Assembly: GCA_034435455.1 (NCBI GenBank)
Contig: DAOTXL010000002.1
Span: 39,023 to 103,022 of the forward strand
Source of the DNA: Anaerolineae bacterium
Lineage (GTDB): Bacteria > Chloroflexota > Anaerolineae > JAAYZQ01
Reading direction: 5' to 3'
DNA length: 64,000 bases
This document shows, piece after piece, positions 8,611 to 49,224 of this stretch; the stretch's first letter is position 1, and each line of letters begins with the position of its first letter. A model generated the notes under the pieces. The model was not told the origin of the DNA. It ran no database searches and saw only the letters and a program-made list of their open reading frames with translations. The translations under genes were made by a program, and so were the position numbers.

Positions 8611-10838
8611 GCCCTGTACACCTTGACGGCCATGTCTTCCCACGCCGTAGTCATGCCAGGGCAACCGATCTCCAACTGCTGAGCGACGGTCAGATTGGGA
8701 ACCAGGTCGCCGTCGTTGCCGCCCTGGCCGTACGCTACAGAAAGGCCGGGGCTCCAGTGGCCGAAGCCATGGTCCACGGCCACGCAGTCGGGGCGGATGC
8801 CGGCCGTCAGGTGGACCCGCACTTTGATCTTGCCGACAGATGACTCGACCCACACAGTTTCGCCCTCACCCACGCCCACCTTTTTCGCCAGTTCCGGATT
8901 CATGGTGGCGCAGTTTTCGGGGCAGAACTCGGCCAGGATGGGGTCGTTCTGGCTCTGGGACATCCGCTCCCACGGCTTGCGCCAGACGAGCAGATGCAGC
9001 GGGTATTGGTCGCTGAGCACGGCACGGGGCTCCTCCCAGCGGGGGAGCGGGTCGTATCCGTTTTTCTCCAGCACGGTCGAATACAGCTCGATCTTTTTGG
9101 ACGGCGTGCCGAACTCGGTCTTGGGCTCAAACGGTTTCTCCTTGCCCCACAACCCACCGTTGCCGCGAATCGCCTCGGCGGTGGTCTCCAACGCCGCCAG
9201 TTGGGCCTCCATGAACGCCTTGCCGCTCATCCCCTCCGGCACATAGTCAGTCAGGCCCATCTTCTTGAGGATGTTGATGGCGATATTGCTGAAACTGCGG
9301 GTATCGTACAGGGCCGGCAGCGCGTCGCGGAGCGCCACCTGGGGGTACATGGCGTGGTACTCGCGGGCCACCAGGCCGCTGGATTCGTAGAAGGTGTTGT
9401 CCGGCAGCACCACGTCGGCCAGTTGCACCATCTCGCTGGGCAGGATGTCGCTCACAGCGATAAAGTCCAGCGTCTTGAGCGCCTCGACCAGGCGGGGCGG
9501 GTTGGGGAAGGCCAGCAGGTTGTGTTTCCACACCAGGGCGACCTTCACCGGGTAGGGGTCCTGGGCCAGGATGCCCTCGGCCAGGGTGCTGAACGATCCC
9601 TTGTTGGTCGGCAGCAGAACGGGGAACTTGTCCAGCCCGTCAATCCGCGGGCCGTGGCCTGTTTCAGGATAATCGGGAAACTGCCAGACATCCCGCAACC
9701 CCGGGAACTTGGGCATGCGGTCCAGGATATGGCCGCCAGGCCGGTCTATGCTGCCCACCAGGGCGTCCAGGATGACGAAGCACTGGGCCGTGCGCCAGGA
9801 GTTGGTATAGTTGGGGCCGCCGGCGTCGCGCTTGTGGTGAGCGACCACCGCCGGCTTGGTCGTGGCGAACTCGCGGGCGATGCGGACGATGGTCTCGGCC
9901 GGCACCTCCGAGATGCCCGCTGCCCACTCGGGCGTGTACTCCTGCACCGCGGCCTTGAGCTGCTCCAGGCCGGTGGTGTAGTTGGCCACGAACTCTTTGT
10001 CGTACAACTCCTCGTTGATGATGGTGCGGATCATGGCCAGCAGCACGGCCAGGTCGGTGCCGGGCTTGATGGGGATCCACTCATTGGCCTTGGCGGCGGT
10101 GATGGACAGGCGTGGGTCAAAGACCACCAGTTTGGCCCCGTTGGCCCGGGCGGTGTTCAGCGAGCGTCCCCAGTGGTTCTTGGACTTGCCCATCCCATCC
10201 CAACCGAAAGCCAGGATGTATTTGGCTTCCTCGTAATCCGCCGTCCAGGTGCGGCCCTTGCCGGTGACCATGGCTCGCCAGACCACCTCGTGGGTGGAGT
10301 AGCAGGTGTTGTTGTGGGAGATCAGGTTGGGCGTGCCGATGGAGTAGGCAAAGTGCTTCTGCCAGGTCTGAGGGCGGGCCACGATCACGATGGCCTGAGG
10401 GCCGTATTGCTCGCGGACCCGGTTGAACTGGGCCGCGATCAGGTCAAACGCCTCGTCCCAGGTGATCTTGACCCAGCCGGGGTCCACGCTGACGCCCTTC
10501 TCCGGGTTGGTGCGTTTCATGGGGTACTTGAGCCGGTCCGGGTCGTAGAGGAGCCGGAGGCCCGAGTAACCCCGGACGCACATTTTGCCCTGGGCAATCT
10601 GGTCTTTGGGATTGCCGCTCAGTCGCACGATGCGCCCATTGCGCAGGTGGGCGATAAAGGCGCAGCCCATGGTACACACGTCGCAGGTGCCGTAGAGGAT
10701 GCCGTCCTCCTCGGGGGCGGCGTAGGCCGGCAGAGGGGCAAAGGCGGTCAACCCGCCGCCGAGCACCGCTGCTGCACCAGTCACCCCGCTCAGTTTGAGA
10801 AACTGCCGTCTGGATAACGTGAGATTCGATTGGCTCAT
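8607..10838 (-). CDS. Tat-dependent molybdopterin oxidoreductase catalytic (alpha) subunit, formate-dehydrogenase-N-like
   Basis: Twin-arginine signal MSQSNLTLSRRQFLKLSGV…; CDVCTMGCAF [4Fe-4S] motif; ATG 10838 with GGAGGAG RBS; no in-frame TGA (Cys-type, not Sec). Confidence 0.8.
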   Translation of the reverse strand: MSQSNLTLSRRQFLKLSGVTGAAAVLGGGLTAFAPLPAYAAPEEDGILYGTCDVCTMGCAFIAHLRNGRIVRLSGNPKDQIAQGKMCVRGYSGLRLLYDPDRLKYPMKRTNPEKGVSVDPGWVKITWDEAFDLIAAQFNRVREQYGPQAIVIVARPQTWQKHFAYSIGTPNLISHNNTCYSTHEVVWRAMVTGKGRTWTADYEEAKYILAFGWDGMGKSKNHWGRSLNTARANGAKLVVFDPRLSITAAKANEWIPIKPGTDLAVLLAMIRTIINEELYDKEFVANYTTGLEQLKAAVQEYTPEWAAGISEVPAETIVRIAREFATTKPAVVAHHKRDAGGPNYTNSWRTAQCFVILDALVGSIDRPGGHILDRMPKFPGLRDVWQFPDYPETGHGPRIDGLDKFPVLLPTNKGSFSTLAEGILAQDPYPVKVALVWKHNLLAFPNPPRLVEALKTLDFIAVSDILPSEMVQLADVVLPDNTFYESSGLVAREYHAMYPQVALRDALPALYDTRSFSNIAINILKKMGLTDYVPEGMSGKAFMEAQLAALETTAEAIRGNGGLWGKEKPFEPKTEFGTPSKKIELYSTVLEKNGYDPLPRWEEPRAVLSDQYPLHLLVWRKPWERMSQSQNDPILAEFCPENCATMNPELAKKVGVGEGETVWVESSVGKIKVRVHLTAGIRPDCVAVDHGFGHWSPGLSVAYGQGGNDGDLVPNLTVAQQLEIGCPGMTTAWEDMAVKVYRA

Positions 10839-11001
10839 AGAGACACACTCCTCCGCCGTCGTTGAACTCTTGGCGACAAGATCCGTCGCCGGGATACCAC
10901 AACGCCCACCAGCAAAGAGGTCGGTGGGCGTCACCCGGCAGGCCAGATTTCGACCACCTCCGGGCAAAGCTCCGCCTTCTCCCTTGCAGGGGCCGTCCTC
11001 C

Positions 11002-11010
11002 ATTGTACCA
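11002..11010 (-). promoter_or_regulatory. Extended -10 (TGgTACAAT) promoter candidate for the FDH-N-like operon, 155-nt structured leader
   Basis: Minus-strand ctggtacaat; leader 10839..10995 contains two GC hairpins (acgcccacc…ggtgggcgt; ggcgac…gtcgcc). Confidence 0.35.
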
Positions 11011-11183
11011 GGAACTGCCTGGCCGCACATCGTGCAAAGTGACATGTTTCACCTGGCACTTTGGGCAGACTATGCGCCGCAGCGACAGGCACACCTGGCG
11101 GAGACACGGACAGGCATTTTGGGCAAAGCCCTAAGCATTTAGCGCCGCCGCCCCACACCTTCCGGTGGAGCAGGGGATCATTT

Positions 11184-13760: not shown

Positions 13761-14924
13761 TCAGGCCGCAACCGGTAGCCCGGCGTGTTCCGACTCGCTG
13801 GCAACCTCCTCTTTGAACACCGGGAAGTAGTGGGTGATCAACGTATACGCAACAACACCACTTGCCAGCAGACCGATGGTGACGGCAAACTCCATCCAGT
13901 GGGGGAAGTAGCTCCCCGTAGGCACCATCTGGCCGATGACGCTGACATCAAGGCGGTTAAGAATTAAGCCCCCGACCACCAGTAGCGCCCCCCAGAACAG
14001 CCCGGCAGCGCTCTGTCGTACTTTGGGGATGGCGAACAACACGGCTGGCAACAGCACGCCCCCTACCATTTCGAGCAAGAACAGATTGCTCCGCACACTT
14101 CCTTCGAACATCAATCCGAACTCACCGGCAACCAGCAATTCAACCACCTTGAGCACAAAGTAGATTCCCAGCACGTAGGGTACGGCGCTGGCTAATCCAG
14201 AGAGAAGGTCTTTCTCCAGAGGCCGTTTCAAGGCTTTCGCGCTGACCACCGACTCCAGGATCACCATCGCCAGCCCTACCGCCACCGCGGAGGTGAAAAA
14301 GAACACGGGCAGTAAGGAAGAATACCACAGTGGGTAGAGCCGGTAGCGCAGGAGCAGAAACAGCGAGCCTAACGAGGACTGGTGCAGAGTGGAGAGGATC
14401 ACCCCGATGATCACCAGGGGGATCTGGATGGCACGAATGATACGCAGGGGCACCTGCCAGCCAAAGCGTTCAAAGACCACCGGGCTAAACTCCAGGGCCA
14501 TGACCGTAGTGTAAAGCATCACGCACCAGCCCACCTCAAAGAGCACCGAGTGAAAGTTCCAATAGATAATCAGGTGCCAGATATGATGCGGCTTGGCCAG
14601 GTCGGCCAGCAAGCCCAGGATGACCAGCAGATAGCCCAGGAAGCCGGTCAGCAACGCTGGCCGAACAATGGGGTGATACTTTTTCAGATTAAAGATGTAG
14701 ACGGTCGCAGCCACCACAAACGCTCCGGCGCCCAAGGCCACACCTGAGACTACGTCGAAGCCGATCCACAGACCCCAGGGATAGCTATCGCTCAGATTGG
14801 TGGCACGGCCCAAACCCAGGGCAAACCGGGCTACCCAGATCGCCATGCCGATCACCGCTACGGCTATCAGGATCCATAGTCCCACTGGAAGAGCACGCTT
14901 CTGTACTTTGGTTGCCTTTGTCAT
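13761..14924 (-). CDS. NrfD/PsrC/HybB-family polytopic membrane subunit (quinone-interacting anchor)
   Basis: 387 aa, 8-10 TM helices, typical NrfD-family pattern. Confidence 0.75.
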   Translation of the reverse strand: MTKATKVQKRALPVGLWILIAVAVIGMAIWVARFALGLGRATNLSDSYPWGLWIGFDVVSGVALGAGAFVVAATVYIFNLKKYHPIVRPALLTGFLGYLLVILGLLADLAKPHHIWHLIIYWNFHSVLFEVGWCVMLYTTVMALEFSPVVFERFGWQVPLRIIRAIQIPLVIIGVILSTLHQSSLGSLFLLLRYRLYPLWYSSLLPVFFFTSAVAVGLAMVILESVVSAKALKRPLEKDLLSGLASAVPYVLGIYFVLKVVELLVAGEFGLMFEGSVRSNLFLLEMVGGVLLPAVLFAIPKVRQSAAGLFWGALLVVGGLILNRLDVSVIGQMVPTGSYFPHWMEFAVTIGLLASGVVAYTLITHYFPVFKEEVASESEHAGLPVAA

Positions 14925-14925
14925 G

Positions 14926-15687
14926 TTACCCCTCCTTCGCTTCAGGGTGAGCAGCGCTTTCTTTCTGCAGTCGCTCCCGACGCTGGAAGAACCAATAGAA
15001 TCCGCTCAGGACCACTGCCAATCCCCCGATCCCGTAAGGCACGTAGGAGACCACCTGCTCACTCAACTTCGTGACCGGCTCCGTGCCCACCGTCGGGAAG
15101 CCTAGCTCCTCGAAGGGCACCGGGGAGATGTACAACCAGGAAGTCCCTCCCACTTCATGTTCCCCGTAGATGTGTTGCACGTACTTGCCGCTACTGGCCT
15201 GAATGCGCTGCTTGGCCTCAAGCAGCAGAGCGTCGCGCTCTCCGAACTTGAGGGCACCCGAGGGGCAGTCAGAGACACACGCTGGCTCTAATCCGGCTGC
15301 CTGGCGATCTGCACAGAAGGTACACTTTTGTATAGAGGGCAAGAGCGCGTCCCAGTTGAGCTTTGGCACACCGAACGGGCAGGCCGTCATGCAGTAGCGA
15401 CAGCCGATGCATTTATGGGCGTCGTATACGACCGGTCCATTGGCCGTCTTTTGCAAGGCACCCACCGGGCAGGCTGAGACGCAGGCCGGGTGCTCGCAGT
15501 GCATACATTGCCGCTTGGTAGTGAACAAGCGTACACCGGGGAATAGGCCCATCTCAAAGCTGTGAATGCGGGTCCACAAGACCCTCTTCTCCTCCACCGG
15601 CACCCCCCGGTTTAGCGTACAGGCTGCCGTACAGGTCTCACAGCCAATGCAGCGGCCGATATCTACCAACATCGCAGATGTGCTCAT
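14926..15687 (-). CDS. 4x[4Fe-4S] ferredoxin electron-transfer subunit (PsrB/HybA-like) with C-terminal TM helix
   Basis: CIGCETCTAAC, CMHCEHPACVSACP, CIGCRYCMTACP, CTFC…CVSDCP; ATG 15687 with AAGGAGGAG RBS. Confidence 0.8.
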   Translation of the reverse strand: MSTSAMLVDIGRCIGCETCTAACTLNRGVPVEEKRVLWTRIHSFEMGLFPGVRLFTTKRQCMHCEHPACVSACPVGALQKTANGPVVYDAHKCIGCRYCMTACPFGVPKLNWDALLPSIQKCTFCADRQAAGLEPACVSDCPSGALKFGERDALLLEAKQRIQASSGKYVQHIYGEHEVGGTSWLYISPVPFEELGFPTVGTEPVTKLSEQVVSYVPYGIGGLAVVLSGFYWFFQRRERLQKESAAHPEAKEG

Positions 15688-15724
15688 TCTGGCACTCCTC
15701 CTTTCACTGTCCTCAACGCCCGGC

Positions 15725-18220
15725 TCACACGCGCTCCACCCGGCACTTGGCCGTTTTCCAGCCAGGCATCTCGGTATGCTCACCAGGATCGTCCAAGGTG
15801 AGGGCATTGGGCCTGGTCGTCCGCAATCCCTGGGTCGGAGAACTGGGGCCAGCGTGCGTCGGGATGTTCACGACCTTGGGATGAATCCGCTCCGTCAGCA
15901 CTGCGTGCATGACCACCGCCCCCCGGGGCGTGCTGACCTGGACCTGATCTCCGCTGGATAGGCCCAGATGGGCCGCCGTCTGGGGGTGCAATTCCACGAA
16001 CACCTCCGGTTCGATGGCCCTCGAAAGAACATCCCAGCGCGTCGCCCAGTGCATGTGGACGGCCGTGGGCTTGTTGGTGGTCATGATCAGTGGGTATTCC
16101 TCGCTCCAGTTGATGTTCTCGCTCTTGTCTTCGGGTTCCTCCTGGACGTCACGGAACTCGGGCAGGCCGGCGTGATGCCAGTTTTCGCCTATATCCACGT
16201 GGACCTTACCGTCAGGGGTCATGAACTTGGGCACCTCCGGGTCATCCGGGTTCATGAACAGGAAGGGCATGCCACCTTTGTCGGCCATCATCGGTGGGCA
16301 GGGGAAAGTGACGCCGCCCTTGGGACTCCATGCTTTCACGTTGTCCAGGGTCATCCCGGCATAGGGGTTCATTTGCGGCCCCATCTCTTGGGCTTTCGCC
16401 ATGGCCGTGGCCTCGTCCAGGCCCTGCTGCATTAACTGCGCCTTGACCGTCATGATCTGCATGTTGGTCATCATCATGCTGGTGACGGTCATGTAATAGT
16501 TGTAAATGGCTTCCGGCCCTTGAGAGAACATCTCGTACGGCCACAACGGTTTCTGGTACTCCGGGTTGTCCATGCCGTTCCCCGTGGTGGTCTCGGTGCA
16601 GAGTTCATCGCCGTAGACCCGCCGCCCCAATTCGTTCCAGATCCACCAGTAGGGCCTGGATTCGCCCAGGGACTCGATGGCCTTTTCCTTCCAGCGCACG
16701 GCCCCATTGCTGCCAGCCATCAGGTTGGAGCCCCCCTCCTCAAACTCGCTGCAAATCGGCAGGATGTAATGGGCATAGTCCGCCGTTCCGTCGTGGAACA
16801 TGGTGAGGTGAACCACCAGGCCCTCGGCCTTGAGCCGTTCCAGGCCCTGACGGAGGGCGTCGGAATTGGGCGTTCGGGCCAGCAGGCTGCCGCTGGCGAA
16901 GAGGACTTTGACGCGCCCCGCCACCATCCCTTCACGGGTCACGCTGGGGGGTTGGTCGCCGGGGTCATAGATGTCATCCACCTTGCCCGGGCCGAAGCGC
17001 CACCACTCGACCTTCATGCCGGTGGTGGGCAAATTCATCACCCCCACGACGCCGGGCTTGCCGTGGATGCCGCCGCCGGGCAGACCAAAAGCGCCCAACA
17101 CGACCGGGATGAGCATCACCGCCCGGCCGGCCTGGTAGCCGTTCGATTGAGCGCTCAACGCCGAACCCAAGACGAAAGCGGTCTTGCGCCCGGCCGCAGC
17201 CATCTCTCGGGCCAACTGGCGGATGGTATCGGCCGGCACCCAGGTGATCTGGGACACCGTCTCGGGATCATACTGGCTGACCAACTGCTTCAGCTTGTCC
17301 ACGTCGCCTTCCACCACATAGTCATTCAGGCGCGGATAGGTCAGGTTCTCGGCAAAGAGGACGTGGAGGATGCCCAGGGCCAGCGCCCCATCGGTGGCCG
17401 GGCGGATGGGGATGTACTGGTCGGCGCGGGCCGCCGAGGGAGTATAGCGCGGGTCGATGCAGACCACCTTGGCGCCATTGTCCTGGGCTTCCAGGATGAA
17501 TTGGAAAGCGACAGGCATGGTGCTGGCCCAGTTGCTGGCCCAGATCACGACGTATTTGGACTGCGGCAAGTCGGTGTCCAGGTTGCTGCGGAACATGTAG
17601 CCGAACAGCGATTTCGCCGCCCGCAAAAAGTTCCCCCCGCAGGCCTGGCAGCCCCCGTAGTGCGGCCGGGCGCTGAACGCCCGCTTGAAGCGATAGAGCA
17701 TGGCTAATCCCTCCGCCCGCACCCGGGGGGTCGTGTAGAAGGCCACCAACTCTTTCTCTTCCTCCGTCTGCTGGCCGACGCCGCCGCGATCCATCCAAGG
17801 CTGGCGCAGCTCTCGCAGCCGGGCGGCGATCTCGTCCAACGCCTGCTCCCAGCTCACCTGCACCCAGCCTTGCCCTTCTCGCTTCAGGGGATACAGGATG
17901 CGATCGGGGTTGTACGTGTCCCCCACGGCCGTCAGGCCTTTGACGCACAGCTTGCCCCCGGTGAAGCGGTCAGTGGCCAGGCCTTCCGCGTGGACGATCC
18001 GCCCGTCCTTCACGTAGACTGTCCGACCGCAGTGGTGCGTACAAGGGTTGTCGCAGAACGAGAGGCGTGGCTCGCCCTCCGCCCAGGAAGGGGCAACACC
18101 AGACTCCGTTGTGCGTGCAAACACCTCATCCGGCGAGCCGAACGTCTCCAGCAACGTCAAGCCTGTGACACCGGCTCCGGCGGCTTTCAGAAACTGCCTT
18201 CTGGTCATCTCGTGGCTCAT
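15725..18220 (-). CDS. Tat-dependent molybdopterin oxidoreductase catalytic subunit (PsrA/PhsA/ArrA-like) with unusual CX3CX3C motif and Met-rich insertion
   Basis: Tat signal MSHEMTRRQFLKAAGAG; FCDNPCTHHCGRT…KLCVKG; ATG 18220 with GGGGGAGG RBS; residues ~594-688 of ORF contain 17 Met. Confidence 0.8.
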   Translation of the reverse strand: MSHEMTRRQFLKAAGAGVTGLTLLETFGSPDEVFARTTESGVAPSWAEGEPRLSFCDNPCTHHCGRTVYVKDGRIVHAEGLATDRFTGGKLCVKGLTAVGDTYNPDRILYPLKREGQGWVQVSWEQALDEIAARLRELRQPWMDRGGVGQQTEEEKELVAFYTTPRVRAEGLAMLYRFKRAFSARPHYGGCQACGGNFLRAAKSLFGYMFRSNLDTDLPQSKYVVIWASNWASTMPVAFQFILEAQDNGAKVVCIDPRYTPSAARADQYIPIRPATDGALALGILHVLFAENLTYPRLNDYVVEGDVDKLKQLVSQYDPETVSQITWVPADTIRQLAREMAAAGRKTAFVLGSALSAQSNGYQAGRAVMLIPVVLGAFGLPGGGIHGKPGVVGVMNLPTTGMKVEWWRFGPGKVDDIYDPGDQPPSVTREGMVAGRVKVLFASGSLLARTPNSDALRQGLERLKAEGLVVHLTMFHDGTADYAHYILPICSEFEEGGSNLMAGSNGAVRWKEKAIESLGESRPYWWIWNELGRRVYGDELCTETTTGNGMDNPEYQKPLWPYEMFSQGPEAIYNYYMTVTSMMMTNMQIMTVKAQLMQQGLDEATAMAKAQEMGPQMNPYAGMTLDNVKAWSPKGGVTFPCPPMMADKGGMPFLFMNPDDPEVPKFMTPDGKVHVDIGENWHHAGLPEFRDVQEEPEDKSENINWSEEYPLIMTTNKPTAVHMHWATRWDVLSRAIEPEVFVELHPQTAAHLGLSSGDQVQVSTPRGAVVMHAVLTERIHPKVVNIPTHAGPSSPTQGLRTTRPNALTLDDPGEHTEMPGWKTAKCRVERV

Positions 18221-18263
18221 TGCATTGCCTCCCCCTTCTGTACTATGGTACGAAAAGATATGC

Positions 18264-18917
18264 TCAGTGGTTTCCTCCTGCATCCAATTGCTGCGCCAGG
18301 GTCGTCAGCAGCCCATCGGCGAGCCGGGCGACCGGCTTGTAGAACCGGGCGGCGTCCAGGGCGTACAGCTCGGTGCAAAACCGGGGCCCCCAGGCCAGCA
18401 AGTGCTCCTGAAGAAAGCGCCGGGCTATGTCCAGATATTGCTCTTCCCCGGTCTCCAGGAATACTCGCCCCAGGTAAGCCATGAAGCCCAGCTCCAGGCC
18501 AAAGTGATCGGGCGGGTAGTTACAGGCATGGATGCTCTGCACGCCGGATTCGGCCCAGAAGGCGCGAACCTGGTCCACCGACTCGCCCATCAGTAGTCCC
18601 TGGAACGTCTGCCCTCCCACGGTCAGGCGATCCCGATAAACCGACTCGTAGGGATGAACGGTCCGAGGTTGCGGCCCGACGAACAACGCGGCGAATTCCC
18701 GGCGCAGTTCGCCGTGCAGATCGGCCGCATCCCGCCCCCGTTGGGCTCGGGCGAACGCCCGCAGAGCCTCCAGCCCGTGGACCAGTTTGCCGTTGCTGCC
18801 CGGTGGCGCTGGCAGGTCCAGCTCTCCCTGCACCATCTCTGTGGCCAGGGCGAGAGGGGGCTCCTCCAAAAAGAGGGCCGCAACCATCCATTCCAACGAA
18901 ACCAGCGTTGGATCCAC
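18264..18917 (-). CDS. TorD/DmsD-family molybdoenzyme chaperone
   Basis: 217 aa, TorD-family helical pattern; immediately upstream of alpha subunit. Confidence 0.65.
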   Translation of the reverse strand: MDPTLVSLEWMVAALFLEEPPLALATEMVQGELDLPAPPGSNGKLVHGLEALRAFARAQRGRDAADLHGELRREFAALFVGPQPRTVHPYESVYRDRLTVGGQTFQGLLMGESVDQVRAFWAESGVQSIHACNYPPDHFGLELGFMAYLGRVFLETGEEQYLDIARRFLQEHLLAWGPRFCTELYALDAARFYKPVARLADGLLTTLAQQLDAGGNH

Positions 18918-21526: not shown

Positions 21527-22771
21527 TCAGGGGCACAGGATGATCCCCTGCGCCCACAAGCAATCCCCGCACGCGGGGAACTCGTTGCCGAAGCAGTCTT
21601 CCTCGTTCGATTCAGAGTACTGGCAGCCACCACAGTCGACGCAGGGCGAAAAGTCGAATTCCACGACCCGCCGGCGGAACTGCTGGTATTTGGTGTGCTG
21701 CCAGACACGCGTGATGGCCTCGTCGTTGACATCGCCCACGACATAGCGCCGGATCGCTTTCTCCCGGCCGAGGATGTAGCAGGTGTAAGAGTGCATGAGG
21801 GCGATGCATGGACTCACCCCACCGTCCCAGGCTACAGCTACGGCGCCTTCGCGCACAAAGCGGCAGTAGCCCTTGAGACTGCCAGAGTGCTCAAGAAGAG
21901 GGTCGATCGTTCCACCATGCCGCAGGAGCCCTAACAGAGGTTCCAGGACTTCAGGGCGAGCATCAATCCGCGGCAGCACAATCTCCGGATACCACCGCGA
22001 GCGTGTCCGGGGATGCGGGCTGCCCGCTGCCAAAGAGTACAGGATCTCCTCGCTGAACTCTTGAGCGTAGGGCAGTACGTTGGTCACGACGATGAAACTG
22101 GCCTCCAGCGAGTGGGCCAGGCGCCGGAGGTTCGGCAGCTCCGACAGGTTACGCCGCGTGACCACGAACTCCAGGCCAATCTCCGGATTGCCACGAGGGT
22201 TCATGCGCCGCAGCGCCAGCAGGTGGCCGACATTTCGCTGTACCAGGTGCAGGTCCGTGCCTGCCCTGATGCCTGCGTTACTTTCCGGCGAGGCCCCGTC
22301 GACCGAGATGACCAGCGTGCCCAACCCAGCCTGAACCAACCCTTCGGCCATCCCCTGGTCCAGGAGTAGCCCGTTGGTGATCAACTCCGTCCTGGCCCCC
22401 AGCTCCCCGGCCAGAGCCACCATCTCCACGATGTCGGGGTGCAGCAACGGCTCGCCCAGCCCCCAGAAGGCCACGGTCTGTAGCGCAGGCGTCTCTCGCA
22501 GGCCCTCGACAAGCCGCCGATAGGTGTCCGTCGCCATGGTCCCGCCCGGCTCATCCCAGGAGCGACGGATGCAGATGGGGCAGTTCAGATTGCAGGCCGT
22601 GGTCGGTTCGACGTAGACCTGGCGCAGCGGCGGATCGGCCGGGCGGAGCAGTAACCCGTCTGCTGTCTCTTCGATCTGGAACCCGGTGCCGGGTGTCAGT
22701 CCCCAGCGGCGCCGCTCTTCCTCCGGTAACCACAGCGCCCCGTCCCGGCCTACGACCTGCTCTTCGCTCAT
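21527..22771 (-). CDS. Radical SAM / SPASM-domain enzyme with N-terminal AbrB/MazE-like swapped-hairpin domain (paralog 1)
   Basis: N-term GALWLPEEERRRWGLTPGTGFQIEETADGLLLRP fits AbrB-N pattern; CNLNCPIC radical SAM triad; C-terminal Cys-rich SPASM (CVDCGGCQYSE…CGDC). Confidence 0.8.
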   Translation of the reverse strand: MSEEQVVGRDGALWLPEEERRRWGLTPGTGFQIEETADGLLLRPADPPLRQVYVEPTTACNLNCPICIRRSWDEPGGTMATDTYRRLVEGLRETPALQTVAFWGLGEPLLHPDIVEMVALAGELGARTELITNGLLLDQGMAEGLVQAGLGTLVISVDGASPESNAGIRAGTDLHLVQRNVGHLLALRRMNPRGNPEIGLEFVVTRRNLSELPNLRRLAHSLEASFIVVTNVLPYAQEFSEEILYSLAAGSPHPRTRSRWYPEIVLPRIDARPEVLEPLLGLLRHGGTIDPLLEHSGSLKGYCRFVREGAVAVAWDGGVSPCIALMHSYTCYILGREKAIRRYVVGDVNDEAITRVWQHTKYQQFRRRVVEFDFSPCVDCGGCQYSESNEEDCFGNEFPACGDCLWAQGIILCP

Positions 22772-22780: not shown

Positions 22781-24679
22781 CTATACCAACGCCACCACCA
22801 GCCAGCCGGCCAGCAGGACGAACAGCCCGGCGGTGAGCAGCTTGACCGCCGCCGCCCGGCGGTTGATGAACTGCGCCAACTGCTCCGAGGTGGTGCCCAG
22901 GTAGGCCAGCACAAAGACCACCACCAGCGGCAGGATGAACATCAGATTGTAGAGCAGCAGGTAGGCAGCAGCCCGTGCTTTCAGGTTGGGCACGCCCAAC
23001 ACGAAAATGATGGTCGGCAGGTAGACCTGGCCGGTGCAGGCCAGCTCGATGAACGAGATGACCATGCCCGTGACCAAGGCTACCGGCACAAAGGCGCGCA
23101 ACCCGGCTCCCTCGCGGATGACACGGTTGATCCACCGGCGCAGGCGCAGCGGCAGCTTGAGCCGCATCTCCTCCGGCCGGCCACGGCGGGCCTGCCACCA
23201 GTCGTACAGGCTGCCGGCAGCCAGGAAGAGGCACAGGACCGCCGTCAGGCCGTACACCCAGCGGCTGATGGCGCTCAGGAAGGGCAGCGAGGCCAGGAAC
23301 TTGAGCAGGCCAAAGCCGACCCCCAGGTAGGTGAGGAACACGCCCAGGGCAAAGGCCGCGCCCACGGCCAGTACCTCGCGCCGGCCACGGCCGACGAAAG
23401 CCAGGTAGGAGATGAAAAAGACGATGGTGGCAAAGGCACAGGGGTTCAACCCGTCCACCAGCCCGGCGGCCAGCACGGTGAGCACCCCGAAGGAGCGGAA
23501 GCGCTCCACGATGCTGCCCGCGGCCTGGTCCTGGGCGGCCTCCCAGCCCTCCCAGGCAGGCTCGGCCCCGGTCGCGGCGTAGCGAGCGACGAGCGCCTCC
23601 AGGGCCTGGGCGGTCAGTTCCTGGTCCACCAGCGCCTCGTCGCCGACGAACACCGCTGGGGCGATCAGGCGTTTCGCCTCCGGCACGCCGGCCTGTGCCC
23701 CCAGCCACTCGCACAGCGCCGCCTCGGCCTTGACATCGAACTCGTGGACGACGAGCTGCGGATACTGCCCCTGCAAGTAGTTCAGGTCCAGGCTCACCCG
23801 GTCGCATTCACGGCAGCCGGGTTGGTAAAAGTAGGCCAGGTGGATGGGAGGCGCGTCCTCGACGACGGTGGCTGCCGGCGTTGGGGTGGGTAGTTCTACC
23901 TGGGGCAGGTCCACGCCCCCCTGGGCCAGATAGAAGTCGATCAACTCCTCCAACCGGGCCTCGATCTCCGCATTGCCCAGGAGGGCATAGTCGCCGATGA
24001 AAATCTCGGGCATATCGCCGTACTCGAGGCCGTACTGAGCCTCGAGGGCCAGCATCTCTTCGTAGTAGCCCTTTTCCAGATCGAACTCATAGATCTCGAC
24101 CTGGCCTTTCTCGTACTTGTCCAGGATCGGTGGCAGGATCTCCTCTTTCAGCACCAGGCAGGAGTCGCAGTTGCTGTCGTAGAACAGCCAGAAGCGTACC
24201 ACCGCCTCGGCGCCCGCTTCCGGCGTGGGTGTAGGCGGCGGAACCGTGGGTGTGGCAGTGGTGTCCAGCCAGGCCTCCAGGCCGGGGATGGCTGGATAAT
24301 CCAGGCCGCCGGCCGCCAGGTGCTGTTCGATCAGCCCCGGCAACTGCTGGGGGATGTCGTAAGAGCCGACCAGCACCCGGTCGCCGATGAACAGCATCGG
24401 CACGCCACGCTGATCGTCGGGCACGCGCTGGGCTTCCATGGCCGCCCGCCACAACTCATAGCCTGCCGGGTCCGACACCTCGATGGCCACCACCTGGAGT
24501 TGGTCGCCATACTTTTCCTGCAGCGGCGGCAGGGTCTCGGTCAGCACCACGTGGCAATGGGGGCAGGTTTCGGCCCAGAACAACACGGCGCGCACCACAG
24601 GCTCCTCGGCGTGGGCAGCCGGCAACGCCGGGAGCAGCAGGAGCAGCGGCAACAACAGCCATCTCATATTTCGTTCCAT
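22781..24679 (-). CDS. Signal-peptide protein with three thioredoxin-fold domains (CPHC, CDSC, CREC) fused to C-terminal CcdA/DsbD-type transmembrane domain
   Basis: Cleavable signal MRWLLLPLLLLLPALPAAHA; three Trx-like units separated by Pro/Thr linkers; C-terminal 6 TM with CcdA Cys motifs GLNPCAF and ELACTGQ. Confidence 0.75.
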   Translation of the reverse strand: MERNMRWLLLPLLLLLPALPAAHAEEPVVRAVLFWAETCPHCHVVLTETLPPLQEKYGDQLQVVAIEVSDPAGYELWRAAMEAQRVPDDQRGVPMLFIGDRVLVGSYDIPQQLPGLIEQHLAAGGLDYPAIPGLEAWLDTTATPTVPPPTPTPEAGAEAVVRFWLFYDSNCDSCLVLKEEILPPILDKYEKGQVEIYEFDLEKGYYEEMLALEAQYGLEYGDMPEIFIGDYALLGNAEIEARLEELIDFYLAQGGVDLPQVELPTPTPAATVVEDAPPIHLAYFYQPGCRECDRVSLDLNYLQGQYPQLVVHEFDVKAEAALCEWLGAQAGVPEAKRLIAPAVFVGDEALVDQELTAQALEALVARYAATGAEPAWEGWEAAQDQAAGSIVERFRSFGVLTVLAAGLVDGLNPCAFATIVFFISYLAFVGRGRREVLAVGAAFALGVFLTYLGVGFGLLKFLASLPFLSAISRWVYGLTAVLCLFLAAGSLYDWWQARRGRPEEMRLKLPLRLRRWINRVIREGAGLRAFVPVALVTGMVISFIELACTGQVYLPTIIFVLGVPNLKARAAAYLLLYNLMFILPLVVVFVLAYLGTTSEQLAQFINRRAAAVKLLTAGLFVLLAGWLVVALV

Positions 24680-25062
24680 ATCATTTCCTCCATTGTCTCG
24701 CTATCGATCCAATCGTCACAAACGTTCTGGATAGATAGCGAAAGCTTTGGAGGAGGAGGCGCGGGCGCCAGCCACGTGGATAGGTCGTGGATGACTGGCA
24801 GGGCAACAGCCAGGATCAGAATCGGAGGGATGGGCATTCCCAGAGCGCCGGGCAGCCCGGTACAGCAGAACAGGCTGCAGCCGGGCATCTGAGCTTGCGG
24901 TTCCGGCGTGGTGTCCGGCTGGCAGCAGCGCTGGCAGCCGGAGACGGACCGCGCCGTCTGAGCGCGAAGGCAGAGGGGGCCGGCCACGAGGTGCAGGGTT
25001 AGCCCACCCAAAATGGCGACGACGCACAAGACGACGAACAGGCGCAGGATGCCGTATCTCAT
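24664..25062 (-). CDS. Small Cys-rich membrane protein (N-terminal TM; CLRAQTARSVSGCQRCCQPD…GCSLFCCTG)
   Basis: ATGA overlap with upstream gene stop (25059-25062) and 16-nt overlap with downstream gene start support expression; 2 hydrophobic segments; 9 Cys. Confidence 0.5.
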   Translation of the reverse strand: MRYGILRLFVVLCVVAILGGLTLHLVAGPLCLRAQTARSVSGCQRCCQPDTTPEPQAQMPGCSLFCCTGLPGALGMPIPPILILAVALPVIHDLSTWLAPAPPPPKLSLSIQNVCDDWIDSETMEEMIWNEI

Positions 25063-25589
25063 GGCATGAGCTCCGCCAACCGCCGCCCGCCCTCGGCATA
25101 CTCCGGCTCCGCCAGGTGGGGACAGGCCGCCAGGCCCAGTTCGCCGAACAGCAATCGGAAGGCAAAGGCCAGGCAGGTCCGTTCGCCGCAGTCACCGCAG
25201 TTGAGCCGGGGCAGCAGCCGGTAGGCGTCCAACGGCCCCAACTGTTGCCGCCGCTCGTAACAGGGCTCGATCTCGGCCCGGCGACGCCAGGTGTCGTTGC
25301 ACAGCTCCTGGAACCAGCGCAGTTGGGCCTCGGCGTCCTCCTCGCCGTCCACTTTGGCCATCACTGCCACGTGCGGGTAAAAGGTCAGGATGCGCCCGCC
25401 CCGCTTGACGGTCACGGTGCCGGCGCCGGGGTTGTACATCAGGTTGGGCACGACGGCGTTCAGGTAGGGGAACACCTCCCCTACCTGATCCCACAGCTCG
25501 GCAATGATCCGGTTCTTGGTCGGGTCGGCAATGCAGTCCATCACCTGGATGATGGTAAAGCCGCGCAGCAGTACGCCGTCGTCGCTCAT
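25059..25589 (-). CDS. DUF3786-like protein with C-terminal CODH/ACS-type Fe-S cluster domain (paralog 1)
   Basis: C-terminal LLPRLNCGDCGERTCLAFAFRLLFGELGLAACPHL matches the CX2CX4C…CP Fe-S domain of corrinoid FeS protein N-termini; paralog of 31585..32136. Confidence 0.65.
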   Translation of the reverse strand: MSDDGVLLRGFTIIQVMDCIADPTKNRIIAELWDQVGEVFPYLNAVVPNLMYNPGAGTVTVKRGGRILTFYPHVAVMAKVDGEEDAEAQLRWFQELCNDTWRRRAEIEPCYERRQQLGPLDAYRLLPRLNCGDCGERTCLAFAFRLLFGELGLAACPHLAEPEYAEGGRRLAELMP

Positions 25590-25598
25590 GGTCCTTTT

Positions 25599-26777
25599 CT
25601 ACGGGCAGCGGATGATGCCCTGCGCCCACAGGCAATCGGCGCAGGAAGGCACGTTGCCCAGGCAATCCTCGTTGTTCTCGGCATAGTCGCAGGCCAGGCC
25701 ACAGTCCACGCAGTACATGAAGCGAAAATCGCGCACCCTGGCCCGAAAACGCACATATTCTTCCGACTGCCAGATGTCGGCCAGCGCCTGCTCGTTCACG
25801 TTGCCCAACAGGTAGCGGCTCACATTTTTGCGCCGGCCATAGATGTAGTAGGGGTAGCTGTGCATCAGGGGGTAGCAGGGGCTGACCCCGCCATCCCAGC
25901 CGATGACCACGGCCCGGTCCTCGACGAAGCGGCACTGCCGCCAGGCCCCCCACTTCATGCGCGGCAGGTCCATCCGCCCCCAGCCGATACCGCCTGCCTC
26001 TTTCACCGGCCAGCTCAGGGGCAGGCCCAGCGGCTCATCGCTGTCGTACAGGATCTCATCGCCCATGGCTTCGGTGTGGGGCAACAGATTGCTGACCAAC
26101 ACTTTGGAGGCTCCCAACCCGGCGGCGATCTCCCGCAGGTGCGGCAGATGGTCCCGGTTGGAGCGGGTGGCGACGAACTCCAGCCCCAGGTTGAGGGGCA
26201 ACCCGCCGCGCTGTTCGGCCAGGCGCATCAGGCGGCGGGCATTGTCCAGCACCCGCTCCAACCCGCCGACGATGCGCGCCCCGTCGTAGGCCTGGGTATG
26301 CACCGTGTCCAGGGAGATAACCACCCAATCCACCGCTGCCGCCAGCAGGCAGTTGGCCATCGCTTCGTCCAGCAGCAGGCCGTTGGTCGTCACCGTCAGC
26401 GGCACCCCCAGCGTCGAGGCCAGGGCCAGCATCTCCGGCAGGCGGGGGTGGACCAGCGGTTCGCCGTAGCCGCCCAAAACCAGGCGCCGTAGGTCCGGCA
26501 GAGCACGCAACCCGGTGATGGTCGCCTCGAACGTCTCCCAGGCCATGTCGCCAGGTGGGTCACTCCATACCTGGCGGACACACACAGCACAGTTCAGGTT
26601 GCAGCGGGTTGTCACCTCCAGGTAGGCCTTGCGGGTGTCGGGGCGGACGCGGTGCAGTCGCAACCCGTCCTCAAACGATTCGACGACGACCCGGGCCCCT
26701 GGCTCCAGCCCCAGACGGGCCACCTGCTCAGCCGGCAGAATCAGCCGTCCATCCACCTCTATTGTCAATTCAGGCAT
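25599..26777 (-). CDS. Radical SAM / SPASM-domain enzyme with N-terminal AbrB/MazE-like domain (paralog 2)
   Basis: LTIEVDGRLILPAEQVARLGLEPGARVVVESFEDGLRLHRV; CNLNCAVC; SPASM Cys cluster; colinear with 21527..22771 protein. Confidence 0.8.
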   Translation of the reverse strand: MPELTIEVDGRLILPAEQVARLGLEPGARVVVESFEDGLRLHRVRPDTRKAYLEVTTRCNLNCAVCVRQVWSDPPGDMAWETFEATITGLRALPDLRRLVLGGYGEPLVHPRLPEMLALASTLGVPLTVTTNGLLLDEAMANCLLAAAVDWVVISLDTVHTQAYDGARIVGGLERVLDNARRLMRLAEQRGGLPLNLGLEFVATRSNRDHLPHLREIAAGLGASKVLVSNLLPHTEAMGDEILYDSDEPLGLPLSWPVKEAGGIGWGRMDLPRMKWGAWRQCRFVEDRAVVIGWDGGVSPCYPLMHSYPYYIYGRRKNVSRYLLGNVNEQALADIWQSEEYVRFRARVRDFRFMYCVDCGLACDYAENNEDCLGNVPSCADCLWAQGIIRCP

Positions 26778-27588: not shown

Positions 27589-27897
27589 TCACCTCCTTTT
27601 CTCCTCTGGCCGGCCTGCGCCGGCCCTTGCCTGCCAATAGGCTGTGTACTCGCGCAACAGCGCCTCTTTATAGTCCTGCTCCGAGCCACGGGCGACCCAG
27701 TTGCGCGTTTGAATCATGGCCAGTAGCTCTTCCGCCGTCTCCGGGCCCGGCTGGCGGTCCAGCAGGTAGAGTTGCTTCAGGACATCATCCAGCCCGACAA
27801 TGCCTACCGGTACGCCGCCGATCTGGATCTGCCGCACCCGGGCATCCAGGTTACAACTACAGGACTGCCTCCACATATCCGGTCCTCGTCCGGGCAT
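27589..27897 (-). CDS. Small uncharacterised 'IxIGG/E' domain protein (paralog of N-terminus of 31003..31578)
   Basis: …QIQIGGVPVGIVGLDDVLKQL…YKEALLREYTAYWQ aligns with FRQILIGEQMVGLWGLQELFDEL…YEEALLREYRRYWK. Confidence 0.45.
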   Translation of the reverse strand: MPGRGPDMWRQSCSCNLDARVRQIQIGGVPVGIVGLDDVLKQLYLLDRQPGPETAEELLAMIQTRNWVARGSEQDYKEALLREYTAYWQARAGAGRPEEKRR

Positions 27898-32140: not shown

Positions 32141-33379
32141 CTATCTTTCCTCCCACGAGTTCTCCTCAAACACCGGCACCCGGCCCTCGGCCACGCAGCG
32201 GTGGGCGAAGAGGTACATCCCCGCCGACCAGGCCTGGTGCGGATATCCCATCGGCCGACCTGTGCGGCCGTGGCACCACTCGTTGAACTCCCACTCTTCC
32301 TCGATCCCCAGCCGATTGACCTCGGCCAGCCTCTCCAGTTGTCGCCGCGCCTCCTCCAGGCGCCCGGCCTTGACCAGCGCAGCGACGTAAAAGCCGCCGA
32401 CAAAGGGCCAGATGCCGCCGTTGTGATACTGCTCGGGCAGGTTCAGGTTGTTGTTGCGATAGTACTCGCGCCAGTCTTTGTTGCCCGGATGGATGACCGG
32501 GTGCAGCACCCGCACCGGGTACGGTTCGGCGATGCCCACCTGGTGTAGATAGTCCAGGATGCGCCGCTCCTGGGCCGGGTTAGCCACGCCGAACAGCACC
32601 GCCAGCAGGTTGCCGAATACGTCGCAATAGTCGCCATAGTCGCGAAAGGCGACGTAGGGCAGGAAGAAGGGTCGCTTGACCAGCACCGGGTCCACCTGGC
32701 TAAGAGTGTGCCGCCACTCGCCATGGCCCGGGCAGGTCGGCCCCCATTCTTCGGCGTTCTCCGGCCCCACCCACAGCACGATACGCAGCTTGTGCCGCAC
32801 GTCGGCGGCCATCTCGGCATAACGCGATCCATCCTTCTCCAGGGTGTCAGCCATGACGGTCATGGCCCGCAGCGCCGCATACCACAGGACATTATCGTAC
32901 AGGATATTGAAGCGGTTGGCAAGCAGGTCGGCCCAGTCGGCGGCCTCGTGCACCTCCAGCAGGCCGCAGCCGTTCGAGTCCTGGTAGCGCAGCCACAGCA
33001 GCGCCCGCTCCAGAGAGGGCCAGTGCGCCCGCAGGGAATCGGCGTCGCCGGTCATCTGGTGGTTGATATAGTGGCCGACGATGTACCACAGGTTCGAGTC
33101 CACCGAGCCGGCATTGGTGTGGTCCAGCCGGCCCGTGGCGACGCTGACGTTGTTGGGGATGGCCCCCAGTTCCGACTGCTGACCGGCCAGGGTGTGCAGC
33201 GAGGTGCGCAGGCAACCCTCGTGACCGGCGGTCAGGCTGGCTCCCAGGCCGGTAATGACGCTGTCCCGCGCCCAGACGTGGGGGTAACCCTCCGGCGAGG
33301 CCATCAATCCCAGCGGGCTGCATTCGCGGCCCAGCACGTCCTCGGCTTTTTCTAACGCCATTTCAGTCAAGTTGCTCAT
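32141..33379 (-). CDS. Six-hairpin glycoside hydrolase, GH100 (neutral/alkaline invertase) / amylo-1,6-glucosidase-like
   Basis: 412 aa, family pattern (…NLWYIVGHY…HEAADWAD…GGIWPF…). Confidence 0.55.
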   Translation of the reverse strand: MSNLTEMALEKAEDVLGRECSPLGLMASPEGYPHVWARDSVITGLGASLTAGHEGCLRTSLHTLAGQQSELGAIPNNVSVATGRLDHTNAGSVDSNLWYIVGHYINHQMTGDADSLRAHWPSLERALLWLRYQDSNGCGLLEVHEAADWADLLANRFNILYDNVLWYAALRAMTVMADTLEKDGSRYAEMAADVRHKLRIVLWVGPENAEEWGPTCPGHGEWRHTLSQVDPVLVKRPFFLPYVAFRDYGDYCDVFGNLLAVLFGVANPAQERRILDYLHQVGIAEPYPVRVLHPVIHPGNKDWREYYRNNNLNLPEQYHNGGIWPFVGGFYVAALVKAGRLEEARRQLERLAEVNRLGIEEEWEFNEWCHGRTGRPMGYPHQAWSAGMYLFAHRCVAEGRVPVFEENSWEER

Positions 33380-33599
33380 GTTCTTGCCACCCTTGCGGCT
33401 CCTCGCCGGGGTCAGGCGCTGGCTGTTCTCCCCGGTAACGGCGCTTCATGGCCCGCAGGGCCAGGACCATCGCCGCCAGCGGCCAGAAATGCAGGATCAT
33501 CGGCGCGCCGCAGTCAGGGCAGGGCAGCATCCCCACCCCCAGCAAGGCCCCGGCGGCCAACCACCACTTGGCCGTGGATGCTGCGAGCCGTTTGCGCAT
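33363..33599 (-). CDS. Hypothetical small membrane protein
   Basis: Two hydrophobic helices, CPDCG motif; start chosen at internal ATG (MRKRLAAS…). Confidence 0.3.
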   Translation of the reverse strand: MRKRLAASTAKWWLAAGALLGVGMLPCPDCGAPMILHFWPLAAMVLALRAMKRRYRGEQPAPDPGEEPQGWQEHEQLD

Positions 33600-33691
33600 T
33601 CGCTCGATCACAGATTCTCCTCCTCGCGACGACCCGGTCGCGCAGGCTACGCCGTCGGTCCCCACCACGATGTGGGCCGGATCGGATTCCT

Positions 33692-36050: not shown

Positions 36051-36224
36051 CTATTTCTGACCCGCCTCCAGGTGGCAGCGCAACCCCTTGCGACCCACCG
36101 CCTGCACCTGGGTCCAGACCCCTTCTTTCAAAAAGCGCAGCGCAGCCGCCCCATCCCTATCGGTCAGGATCATCTGCACATCTTGCTGTTCTTGTTCGCC
36201 CAACACCACGGAGATTCTGGCCAT
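36051..36224 (-). CDS. Hypothetical small protein
   Basis: ORF 36051..36281 trimmed to MARISVVLGEQE…; no recognisable motif. Confidence 0.25.
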   Translation of the reverse strand: MARISVVLGEQEQQDVQMILTDRDGAAALRFLKEGVWTQVQAVGRKGLRCHLEAGQK

Positions 36225-36247
36225 AGCTCTTTCCTCAACAGCACTCC

Positions 36248-36583
36248 CTAGATCGCTCCCTCTACAAACTCGATGCTGCAATCACCCGGCAAAAAGATGC
36301 CGGCGGTCACCTCCATCGCCTTCAGGATGGCGGCGGGCACGATGCAACTGTTGCGACAGACATGCTCGACGGCCAGCCGGTAGACCCGGGTCTCGTCCAG
36401 CCGGCAGGCCATATCATGCGCCACGTCCACCTTGCCCAGCGCCTCGGCCAGCGCCTGGACGTGCTCGCAGGTGGTCGTGATCTCGAACGTGACGTGCGTC
36501 GGATTGGTCTTGCGGGCTTCGATGCTCGATTCATGCCCACACACGCCCGCCTTTACCCAACATAGGGCCATATCAATCTCCAT
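36248..36583 (-). CDS. Hypothetical Cys-rich protein (7 Cys; CWVKAGVCGH…C…C…CRNSC)
   Basis: ORF 36248..36595; possible metal-binding; no family recognised. Confidence 0.35.
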   Translation of the reverse strand: MEIDMALCWVKAGVCGHESSIEARKTNPTHVTFEITTTCEHVQALAEALGKVDVAHDMACRLDETRVYRLAVEHVCRNSCIVPAAILKAMEVTAGIFLPGDCSIEFVEGAI

Positions 36584-45954: not shown

Positions 45955-45956
45955 GC

Positions 45957-46565: not shown

Positions 46566-46711
46566 GGCGGTTTCCTCTTCTATCTCGCTTCTCTTCTGCT
46601 CCCCACCTGCCCTGCCGGATAGGCCAGGGTGCCCGCCGTGGGCCGGTGAGGCCGAGACCCCCGGCTCTCACCGGCCACGAGGGCGGGCGCCGTTGCTTGC
46701 CCGGCACACGG

Positions 46712-47098: not shown

Positions 47099-47110
47099 GG
47101 CCTGCTCCCG

Positions 47111-48271
<1,161 letters not shown>

Positions 48272-49210: not shown

Positions 49211-49224
49211 ATCCCACCGGTCGG

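Follow-up and report, generated by a model that had tools for sequence, protein, structure and literature searches.

Known systems and the locus under study

CutF of Rhodobacter capsulatus (cutFOG) and CruR of Bordetella pertussis are upstream sensor open reading frames (ORFs) of the DUF2946 family (PMC9973294; PMC9426467; bioRxiv 10.1101/2025.02.05.636593). CutF combines a Sec signal peptide, a CxxxC motif and a C-terminal PPP (P109EPEGPPPRL118) with a stem-loop that masks cutO's Shine-Dalgarno (SD) sequence, and when copper binds to the nascent chain after its export, the stall lasts longer and cutO is switched on (bioRxiv 10.1101/2025.02.05.636593; PMC9973294). The published CutF-like proteins come mostly from Pseudomonadota and Bacteroidota, those of Chloroflexota being described as scarce, and their neighbours are copper-homeostasis genes, thioredoxin and DsbD being unmentioned in the text. 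Here we analyse a small ORF of 132 amino acids (aa), located at 24664..25062 on the minus strand of a 64,000-nucleotide (nt) stretch of contig DAOTXL010000002.1 from an Anaerolineae bacterium (GCA_034435455.1), the whole of which is referred to as the window. On the same strand, the small ORF is followed directly by a gene for a 632-aa protein (22781..24679) with a signal peptide, three thioredoxin (Trx)-like CxxC domains and a polytopic membrane domain, designated Trx3-CcdA-like. We propose, with moderate confidence, that the small ORF is a genuine gene, translated and confined to its lineage, and that it works in cis on the Trx3-CcdA-like gene in a CutF-like manner.

The small ORF resembles CutF and CruR in its small size (107–132 aa among its members, 118 aa for CutF, where CutF-like ORFs are expected to stay below 150 aa), its N-terminal hydrophobic, putative targeting sequence, a Cys motif that includes CxxxC, a proline run near the C-terminus, a largely unstructured product, a predicted mRNA structure that would mask the SD of the same-strand gene right after it, and a heavy-metal or metalloid neighbourhood. 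It differs from them in occurring in Chloroflexota, in the gene that it would regulate, which encodes a thioredoxin/CcdA-like fusion, in carrying seven Cys with two vicinal pairs, and in being start-coupled (ATGA) to a gene with an iron-sulfur (FeS) domain. The Pro codons of the small ORF themselves form the anti-SD strand, whereas CutF has a separate intergenic stem-loop. Stalling and ligand dependence have been shown for CutF and CruR, whereas for the small ORF they are computational predictions. By analogy, the small-ORF family may work like CutF and CruR without being DUF2946 by sequence, and the use of Pro codons as the anti-SD would be its distinctive feature.

With SecM, MifM and VemP (PMC7897499; PMC10987492) the small ORF, as proposed here, shares an N-terminal signal or transmembrane segment, a C-terminal arrest or pause element, and a downstream SD in a stem-loop that is opened by the paused ribosome. 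These systems regulate Sec/YidC components and sense translocation force, whereas the putative target of the small ORF is a thiol-redox membrane protein; the small ORF has polyproline only, without a RAPP or GIRAGP-type motif. In mgtP of the Salmonella mgtCBR leader (PMC3641672), the translation of consecutive Pro codons likewise determines which mRNA stem-loop is formed. In contrast to the small ORF, mgtP, a short leader of the cytoplasm, exerts its effect on transcription elongation and has neither membrane targeting nor a Cys motif.

A coding small ORF with a conserved Cys-rich segment

The first-pass annotation, which was made from the window sequence, had described a 132-aa ORF with an N-terminal transmembrane helix and a segment of seven Cys with CC pairs; an N-terminal hydrophobic helix and the Cys segment are both confirmed. 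AlphaFold2 (AF2) predicted a confident helix at residues 3–33 (24964..25056), with a predicted local distance difference test (pLDDT) score of 88–95, and the top 19-residue hydropathy window reaches 2.67 (2.2–2.95 across all homologues). Every member of the family retains this helix, which is predicted to serve as a signal anchor or signal peptide. The segment CLRAQ...FCCTG occupies residues 31–69, with Cys at C31, C43, C46, C47, C62, C66, and C67 in the pattern C-x11-CxxCC-x14-CxxxCC (codons 31–67, 24862..24972). AF2 gave no confident fold after the helix, the remainder falling below pLDDT 50–60. A second hydrophobic segment had also been claimed; the stretch in question, PIPPILILAVALPVI, is indeed hydrophobic and Pro-rich, but AF2 gives no helix there (pLDDT < 50). 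Along the ORF, the helix and the Cys-rich segment are followed by a Pro-rich segment, by PPPP (codons 102–105, CCT CCT CCT CCA, 24748..24759), which is a likely polyproline pause site, and by a lineage-specific tail.

About 20 distinct homologues of the small ORF were found, all of them from metagenome-assembled genomes (MAGs) of Anaerolineae/Chloroflexota and from metagenomes. A search of 5.8 billion proteins returned 12 homologues at 58–68% identity, a profile search of 1.84 billion representative proteins returned two further true members and one spurious repeat protein, and the three genome matches are Chloroflexota/Anaerolineae MAGs. In an alignment of 13 homologous proteins (A1), all seven Cys, the F65-CC-x-GLP motif and P103–105 are invariant. 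The Cys spacing, which the first-pass annotation had proposed to check in homologues, is thus conserved, and the invariant C43xxC46C47 and C62xxxC66C67 are candidates for the conserved Cys/His metal-binding motif (CxxxC in CutF) that characterizes CutF-like ORFs. The product matched no family in Pfam or NCBIfam (Pfam-A hmmscan, 0 families for the window protein at E <= 1 and for the 13 members of A1 at E <= 10), and comparison with PDB sequences yielded chance matches only (E >= 0.15).

Comparison of seven DNA alleles of the small ORF gave pairwise differences of 0.283, 0.209, and 0.386 at codon positions 1, 2, and 3, respectively. The median ratio of nonsynonymous to synonymous substitution rates (dN/dS) is 0.46 in the small-ORF frame, whereas the two shifted frames give medians of 1.03 and 1.70. 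The indels come in whole codons. The GC content at third codon positions in this frame is 0.75–0.85 over the first 300 nt, which is neighbour-like, and about 0.5 over the last 100 nt. The small ORF is a genuine gene under coding selection. As for the real expression that had been argued earlier, the selection, present in this frame only, makes the gene look expressed, a judgement drawn from the nucleotide sequences. The small ORF is also the least conserved gene of the cluster, with 40–65% aa identity versus 79–100% for its neighbours.

In every allele with readable flanks (the window, the related loci L001, L003, L009–L013, L017, L019, L020, and L027–L029, and the P0007 place), the small ORF lies directly upstream of the Trx3-CcdA-like gene, and this constant downstream neighbour bears out the tight linkage to a thioredoxin/CcdA-like gene that had been noticed in the window. 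In L013 and L011, the small ORF/Trx pair is flanked by ArsC, ACR3, and ArsR-type genes. The constant Trx neighbour and the metal(loid) genes together tie the small ORF to the Trx3-CcdA-like gene in a metal(loid)-stress setting. On the other side, the small-ORF ATG shares an ATGA at 25062..25059 with the TGA that ends the upstream FeS-domain gene (176 aa, 25059..25589, minus strand), as had been described. In most alleles the FeS-domain gene comes before the small ORF and overlaps it by 4 nt; L013 and L017 lack the FeS-domain gene. Of its earlier label, DUF3786-FeS, the FeS domain was recovered (PF04060 at 6.5e-10), while DUF3786 was not reproduced in Pfam.

The DNA identity between the window and L001 is 97–99% up to the FeS-domain gene, 73–77% over the small ORF, 93% over Trx domain 1, 74–75% over Trx domain 2, and 90–97% over the membrane domain. 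L009 and L010 are recombinants, with a window-type small ORF on an L001-type remainder, and these mosaics indicate that recombination has reassorted divergent alleles of the small ORF. Obligatory co-evolution with Trx domain 2, which is variable, was considered and rejected, since L009 mixes the window ORF with the L001 remainder.

RNA structure over the Trx3-CcdA-like gene's ribosome-binding site

The SD of the Trx3-CcdA-like gene, GGAGGAA (24685..24691), lies 7 nt upstream of its ATG at 24679 and is paired with Pro codons of the small ORF in the minimum free energy (MFE) fold. Two nested helices make up this structure. The inner hairpin (24697..24743) consists of a 5' arm at 24729..24743, which covers the L-SLSI codons, a loop, and a 3' arm at 24697..24711, while in the outer helix the Pro codons CCUCCUCC (24748..24754, UCCUCCA) pair with the SD at 24686..24692. 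The Pro codons have the same SD partner in all nine alleles with PPPP. Both helices are found in the MFE folds of the seven short-spacer alleles, and L012 and L017, which carry a loop insertion of ~130 nt, retain both in their full-length folds. By computation, a stem-loop therefore shields the downstream SD, as it does in CutF.

The RNAalifold consensus of nine sequences contains 20 pairs, seven of which show compensatory changes. The inner hairpin contributes 14 consensus pairs, six of them compensatory, with 86.5% of cells paired, and the seventh covarying pair is located in the outer helix. The consensus structure pairs 88.9% of cells, versus 37–48% when the partners are slid by 1–3 columns. 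Among 500 shuffles, three reach seven covarying pairs and one reaches the covariation score. The fold of the window sequence has an energy of −36.2 kcal/mol (z = −5.26), and none of 200 shuffles is equally stable. In seven of the nine alleles, 56–61 nt separate the last Pro codon from the SD, even though the position of the stop varies from 6 to 27 codons after PPPP. The RNA structure exists, covaries, and has a constant geometry.

Codon choice in the Pro run departs from that of the surrounding genes. Across the nine alleles, CCT accounts for 20 of the 35 PPPP codons (57%) and CCG for two, whereas the Pro codons of 18 window genes are CCG in 45% and CCT in 10.4% of cases. All nine alleles have CCT as the third Pro codon, the one opposite the A of GGAGG. 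In L020, the PPPP and SLSI arms and Cys62 have been lost together: its small ORF carries C62Y, has no Pro-rich half, and is devoid of both 5' arms of the RNA structure. A search of 24300..25400 against Rfam gave sub-threshold chance matches only. No promoter or terminator was found in a scan of 24400..25700, and the negative terminator scan indicates that the hairpin is not an intrinsic terminator.

The 3' end of the small ORF varies around this fixed arrangement. The first-pass annotation had noted that this end overlaps the Trx3-CcdA start; the overlap is present in the window, where it spans 16 nt up to the first ATG (24679) and where the small-ORF TGA also forms ATGA with a second ATG of the Trx3-CcdA-like gene, but it is restricted to few lineages. 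The tail of the window protein, VCDDWIDSETMEEMIWNEI (its last ~20 residues), is no conserved peptide, and the tail and the 3' overlap result, in those few lineages, from reading through conserved intergenic DNA. The conserved block ahead of the Trx3-CcdA start is GATAGCGAGACAATGGAGGAAATGA. In L013 the ORF ends with EAND* and is followed by the same DNA, in L001 that DNA is in another frame, the tails of L020 and P0005 end in the same block before the Trx start, and the small ORFs of the window and L011 read through to overlap with that start. The stop lies 6–13 codons after the last Pro in seven of the nine alleles, 27 codons after it in the window and 24 in L011. PPP(P) is invariant and is found within ~15 C-terminal residues in seven of the nine alleles, a position like that in CutF-like ORFs. 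Most alleles have a spacer of 36–51 nt before the Trx3-CcdA start; spacer lengths mostly fall between −16 and +51 nt, and two alleles have 154–173 nt.

Proposed mechanism of cis regulation

For the small ORF we infer a membrane topology, pausing at PPPP, and ligand or redox sensing, which could be combined as follows. The N-terminal hydrophobic helix would direct the nascent chain to the membrane. While the mRNA is at rest, the Pro codons would pair with the SD over the inner hairpin, and since the SD is paired with the PPPP codons, the Trx ribosome-binding site would be hidden. A ribosome translating the small ORF would unwind both helices; because this translation must open them, Trx3-CcdA synthesis would be tied to the reading of the small ORF. 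PPPP is a well-established motif on which translation is slow and requires elongation factor P (EF-P; see also bioRxiv 10.1101/2025.02.05.636593). As its codons coincide with the anti-SD, pausing on them would hold the SD free: the polyproline pause would keep the anti-SD inside the ribosome and leave the SD open for new initiation. The output of Trx3-CcdA would most likely be tuned by the dwell of the ribosome at PPPP. At this pause, residues ~1–65, which comprise the helix and nearly all of the Cys-rich segment, would be outside the exit tunnel. The dwell time could depend on the exported Cys part, through binding of a thiophilic metal or metalloid or through its redox state, as in CutF, and a sensible output would be that the cell exports more thiol-reducing capacity when it is stressed by thiophilic metal(loid)s or by thiol oxidation.

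It is possible, though doubtful, that the small ORF represents a second, DUF2946-unrelated family of transmembrane nascent-chain sensors in Chloroflexota, in which the exported Cys segment reports metal(loid) or thiol-redox stress (e.g., arsenite), prolongs the pause, and switches on a DsbD-like reductase. If this were true, the CutF layout would have evolved more than once, and the regulated genes would extend to thiol-redox machinery in arsenic/metal islands. It would also be a case of compact dual coding, in which the polyproline pause site and the anti-SD are the same nucleotides. Sensing outside the cell by a stalled nascent chain has so far been documented for DUF2946 copper sensors, mostly of Pseudomonadota and Bacteroidota. 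An attenuator made of tandem Cys codons, which would sense Cys-tRNA, was considered and rejected, as the Cys codons lie 35–70 codons upstream of the structure and the membrane helix is conserved.

Weighing of alternative explanations

Several points weigh against a CutF-like pausing sensor. Concerning the RNA, the sample of nine related sequences is small, and two rows of their alignment had their loops trimmed by hand. The outer helix never varies, so that covariation cannot support it, and selection on the peptide by itself could explain why PPPP is conserved. The low local GC content weakens the argument from codon bias, and predicted SD pairing is common in this GC-rich genome (the mean for control genes is 0.04–1.0, and one of them reaches 1.0). 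Concerning the protein, the charges flanking the helix are about equal, which makes the charge-based topology estimate ambiguous, so the Cys region could face the cytoplasm. The product has no sequence similarity to DUF2946 (Pfam, 13 members, E <= 10), and the small ORF of L012 lacks QRCC and thereby the first CC pair, indicating that not all Cys are indispensable. Finally, since the ORF reads through to the ATGA overlap in the window, L011, P0005, and L020, termination-reinitiation could suffice without a pause; coupling, not sensing, may be the conserved core, with sensing as an addition.

The seven invariant Cys with their two CC pairs, the purifying selection along the whole peptide, and the constant adjacency to the Trx3-CcdA-like gene would also fit a stable, membrane-anchored, thiol-rich partner or client of the Trx3-CcdA-like protein, for which the RNA structure would serve only matched, coupled synthesis. 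Outside the cell, the vicinal Cys of such a partner would bind As(III), Sb(III), Hg, or Cu, or relay electrons, and the Trx domains, which come after a signal peptide, would keep it reduced. The arsenic/metal gene context agrees with this, and vicinal Cys pairs bind As(III) or Hg(II) in ArsD, MerT, and MerF, which likewise have CC pairs in a small protein and belong to metal(loid) resistance islands. No sequence or fold relation to these proteins was detected, however, and no transporter-like second transmembrane helix is predicted in the small ORF. We consider the partner role rather unlikely: AF2 gives no fold beyond the anchor, the small ORF is the fastest-evolving gene of the cluster (65% aa identity in a comparison that gives 86–100% for its neighbours), alleles without a CC pair or without the whole C-terminal half persist, and the Trx3-CcdA family, with at least 1691 members, is mostly without the small ORF. 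The PPPP-to-SD geometry and the choice of CCU codons would be left unexplained as well. At the other extreme, only the translation that unmasks the SD might matter, and the peptide would be a functionless, young orphan derived from spacer. Such an origin would account for the narrow distribution (two further matches among 1.84 billion representatives), the predicted disorder, the relaxed dN/dS of 0.3–0.65, the variable stop position and tail, the tolerated partial deletions, and the Trx3-CcdA homologues at 57–73% identity that have no such ORF. A leader without peptide function is nevertheless improbable in our view, given that dN/dS is clearly below 1 in the small-ORF frame only, that the seven Cys and FCC-GLP are invariant at dS up to 0.8, and that all members keep the helix, which a mere spacer-opening ORF would not need.

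The first-pass annotation had suggested yet another possible role, that of a precursor of a ribosomally synthesized and post-translationally modified peptide (RiPP), whose Cys would be crosslinked (thioether or similar) by the adjacent radical S-adenosylmethionine (rSAM)-SPASM enzymes with the assistance of the Trx system. A Cys-rich peptide does lie between two rSAM-SPASM genes in the window (rSAM1, 25599..26777, and rSAM2, 21527..22771, both on the minus strand) as well as in L001, L003, L012, and L029, and SCIFF-like Cys-rich precursors exist. Nevertheless, this role was not borne out and appears extremely improbable. The small ORF/Trx pair has no rSAM gene within 7–10 kb in L013 and L017, and in L020, which is without rSAM1, a P5CR-like gene comes directly before the FeS-domain gene. 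Conversely, the rSAM1 relatives in L024–L026 are without the small ORF; one relative, at 66% identity, adjoins an aldehyde:ferredoxin oxidoreductase (AOR) gene (L025), and another, at 72% identity, has the FeS-domain gene beside it but no small ORF and no Trx gene. In size, the rSAM family exceeds that of the small ORF 40-fold, with at least 794 members for rSAM1, many of which are named 'tungsten cofactor oxidoreductase radical SAM maturase' (NCBI, JGI). The best scores of the rSAMs are to TIGR04317 and TIGR04311, both enzyme-maturase families; for TIGR04317 they amount to 366.8 bits (rSAM1) and 312.9 bits (rSAM2), both below the curated cut-off of 380 bits. A Pfam profile search of the rSAMs detected no RiPP recognition element (RRE)/PqqD domain, the matches being Radical_SAM, SPASM, and a weak AbrB/MazE-like N-terminal match only. 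The loci without rSAM, together with the larger, maturase-named rSAM family, mean that the RiPP-substrate role is not supported, and if the Cys region is exported, the membrane anchor would keep the peptide from cytoplasmic enzymes. SCIFF/ranthipeptides, sactipeptides, and QhpC are also short Cys-rich peptides beside rSAM-SPASM genes; they are cytoplasmic precursors with strict co-occurrence with the maturase, whereas the small ORF has a membrane helix and keeps the Trx gene as its neighbour, and the nearby rSAMs probably belong to an enzyme-maturase clade. A membrane-targeting N-terminal helix is not known from rSAM-SPASM precursors. Literature searches on rSAM/tungsten maturases and on small proteins associated with arsenic, Trx, or CcdA yielded nothing on the small-ORF family. 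A Cys-rich small ORF next to an rSAM gene should not automatically be taken as a RiPP precursor.

The Trx3-CcdA-like gene and other neighbours

The Trx3-CcdA-like protein has CxxC motifs at residues 39, 171, and 289, and Cys414 and Cys548, which are located in hydrophobic segments, are invariant in 45 homologues. It is a putative exported thiol-disulfide reductase. The CcdA part of the label, which goes back to the first-pass annotation, finds some backing in a weak match to the NCBIfam ArsG family (1e-6), in the names of its homologues at JGI (CcdA/glutaredoxin or CcdA/thioredoxin fusions), and in the two invariant Cys, but the protein matched neither the DsbD models of Pfam nor any PDB sequence. 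A Foldseek comparison of the membrane domain with the PDB gave no significant match, the AF2 model used as the query being poor (pLDDT 64.5). The homologues at 57–73% identity that lack the small ORF are found among ArsC, ArsP, ArsR, Thioredoxin_3, and cation-efflux genes. That the small ORF might be fused to Trx3-CcdA in a Rosetta-stone protein was also considered and rejected, since what the 769-aa homologue P0021 adds is simply one more Trx domain, its fourth. P0021, P0058, P0060, and P0077 are homologues with either a fourth domain resembling thioredoxin or an additional CxxC of the CHICDE type in the linker between domains 1 and 2.

In a deletion variant that occurs in several metagenomes (L002, L004, L005, L006, and L018), the small ORF, 100% identical to that of L001, is followed by an ORF of 206 aa and a permease fragment of 229 aa, whereas most of Trx3-CcdA, rSAM2, and the first part of the ATP-binding cassette (ABC) permease are missing. 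In the MAG locus L011 (9455..12100), the FeS-domain, P5CR-like, Trx3-CcdA, and rSAM2 genes appear frameshifted or truncated, and there is no full-length match to rSAM1. The small ORF and the RNA structure of L011 are intact, and the damage to the neighbours could reflect gene decay or assembly errors.

Both rSAMs have an extra N-terminal domain of ~45 aa outside the TIGR04317 model, which in rSAM1 is AbrB/MazE-like at E = 0.0055. No AOR gene was recognised among the window ORFs. A tungsten-type aldehyde:ferredoxin oxidoreductase gene (AFOR_N/AFOR_C) and a ThiS-like gene are located at 3518..8914 of L017, ~1.2 kb upstream of the small ORF/Trx pair, and an AFOR_N/AFOR_C gene directly follows the rSAM1 homologue in L025 (6001..9242).

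Metal(loid) genes and further loci

An arsenic/metal block is located at 45277..51439 of the window, with all of its genes on the minus strand. It contains a CcdA gene (45277..46029) that is separate from the Trx3-CcdA-like gene, a DGC-domain protein gene (46712..47098), ACR3 (47111..48271; 463 bits), and an ArsP_1 permease gene (49961..51439). An ArsR-like ORF (49225..49599) and a small thioredoxin-like ORF (49610..49864) are candidates identified by eye.

Two molybdopterin oxidoreductases are encoded at 8607..11045 and 13761..18917 (minus strand), one PhsA-like (443.7 bits, below the cut-off) and one Fdh-alpha-like, and neither reaches the ArrA cut-off. The Fdh-alpha-like oxidoreductase is accompanied by a TorD-like chaperone, a 4Fe-4S subunit, and an NrfD/HmcC-like membrane subunit, and a PAS-GAF histidine kinase and a response regulator adjoin the molybdopterin oxidoreductase cluster.

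A second small membrane protein, with CPDCG in a hydrophobic stretch, is encoded at 33363..33668 of the window (minus strand) and at 4497..4721 of L001. In L001 it is positioned directly before a gene for a paralogous 183-aa FeS-domain protein and a ferredoxin gene, and the N-terminal half of this ferredoxin resembles a 102-aa protein encoded at 27589..27897 of the window. The CPDCG protein and its FeS-domain neighbour may form a paralogous module in which a small Cys membrane protein is paired with an FeS-domain protein. Another small protein, with the motif DRD-AAALRFLKE, is encoded at 36051..36281 of the window (minus strand), where it adjoins DUF6951; it is also found immediately upstream of the small ORF in L013 (before 9941) and, in L024 (7233..7379), between rSAM1 and the FeS-domain gene.

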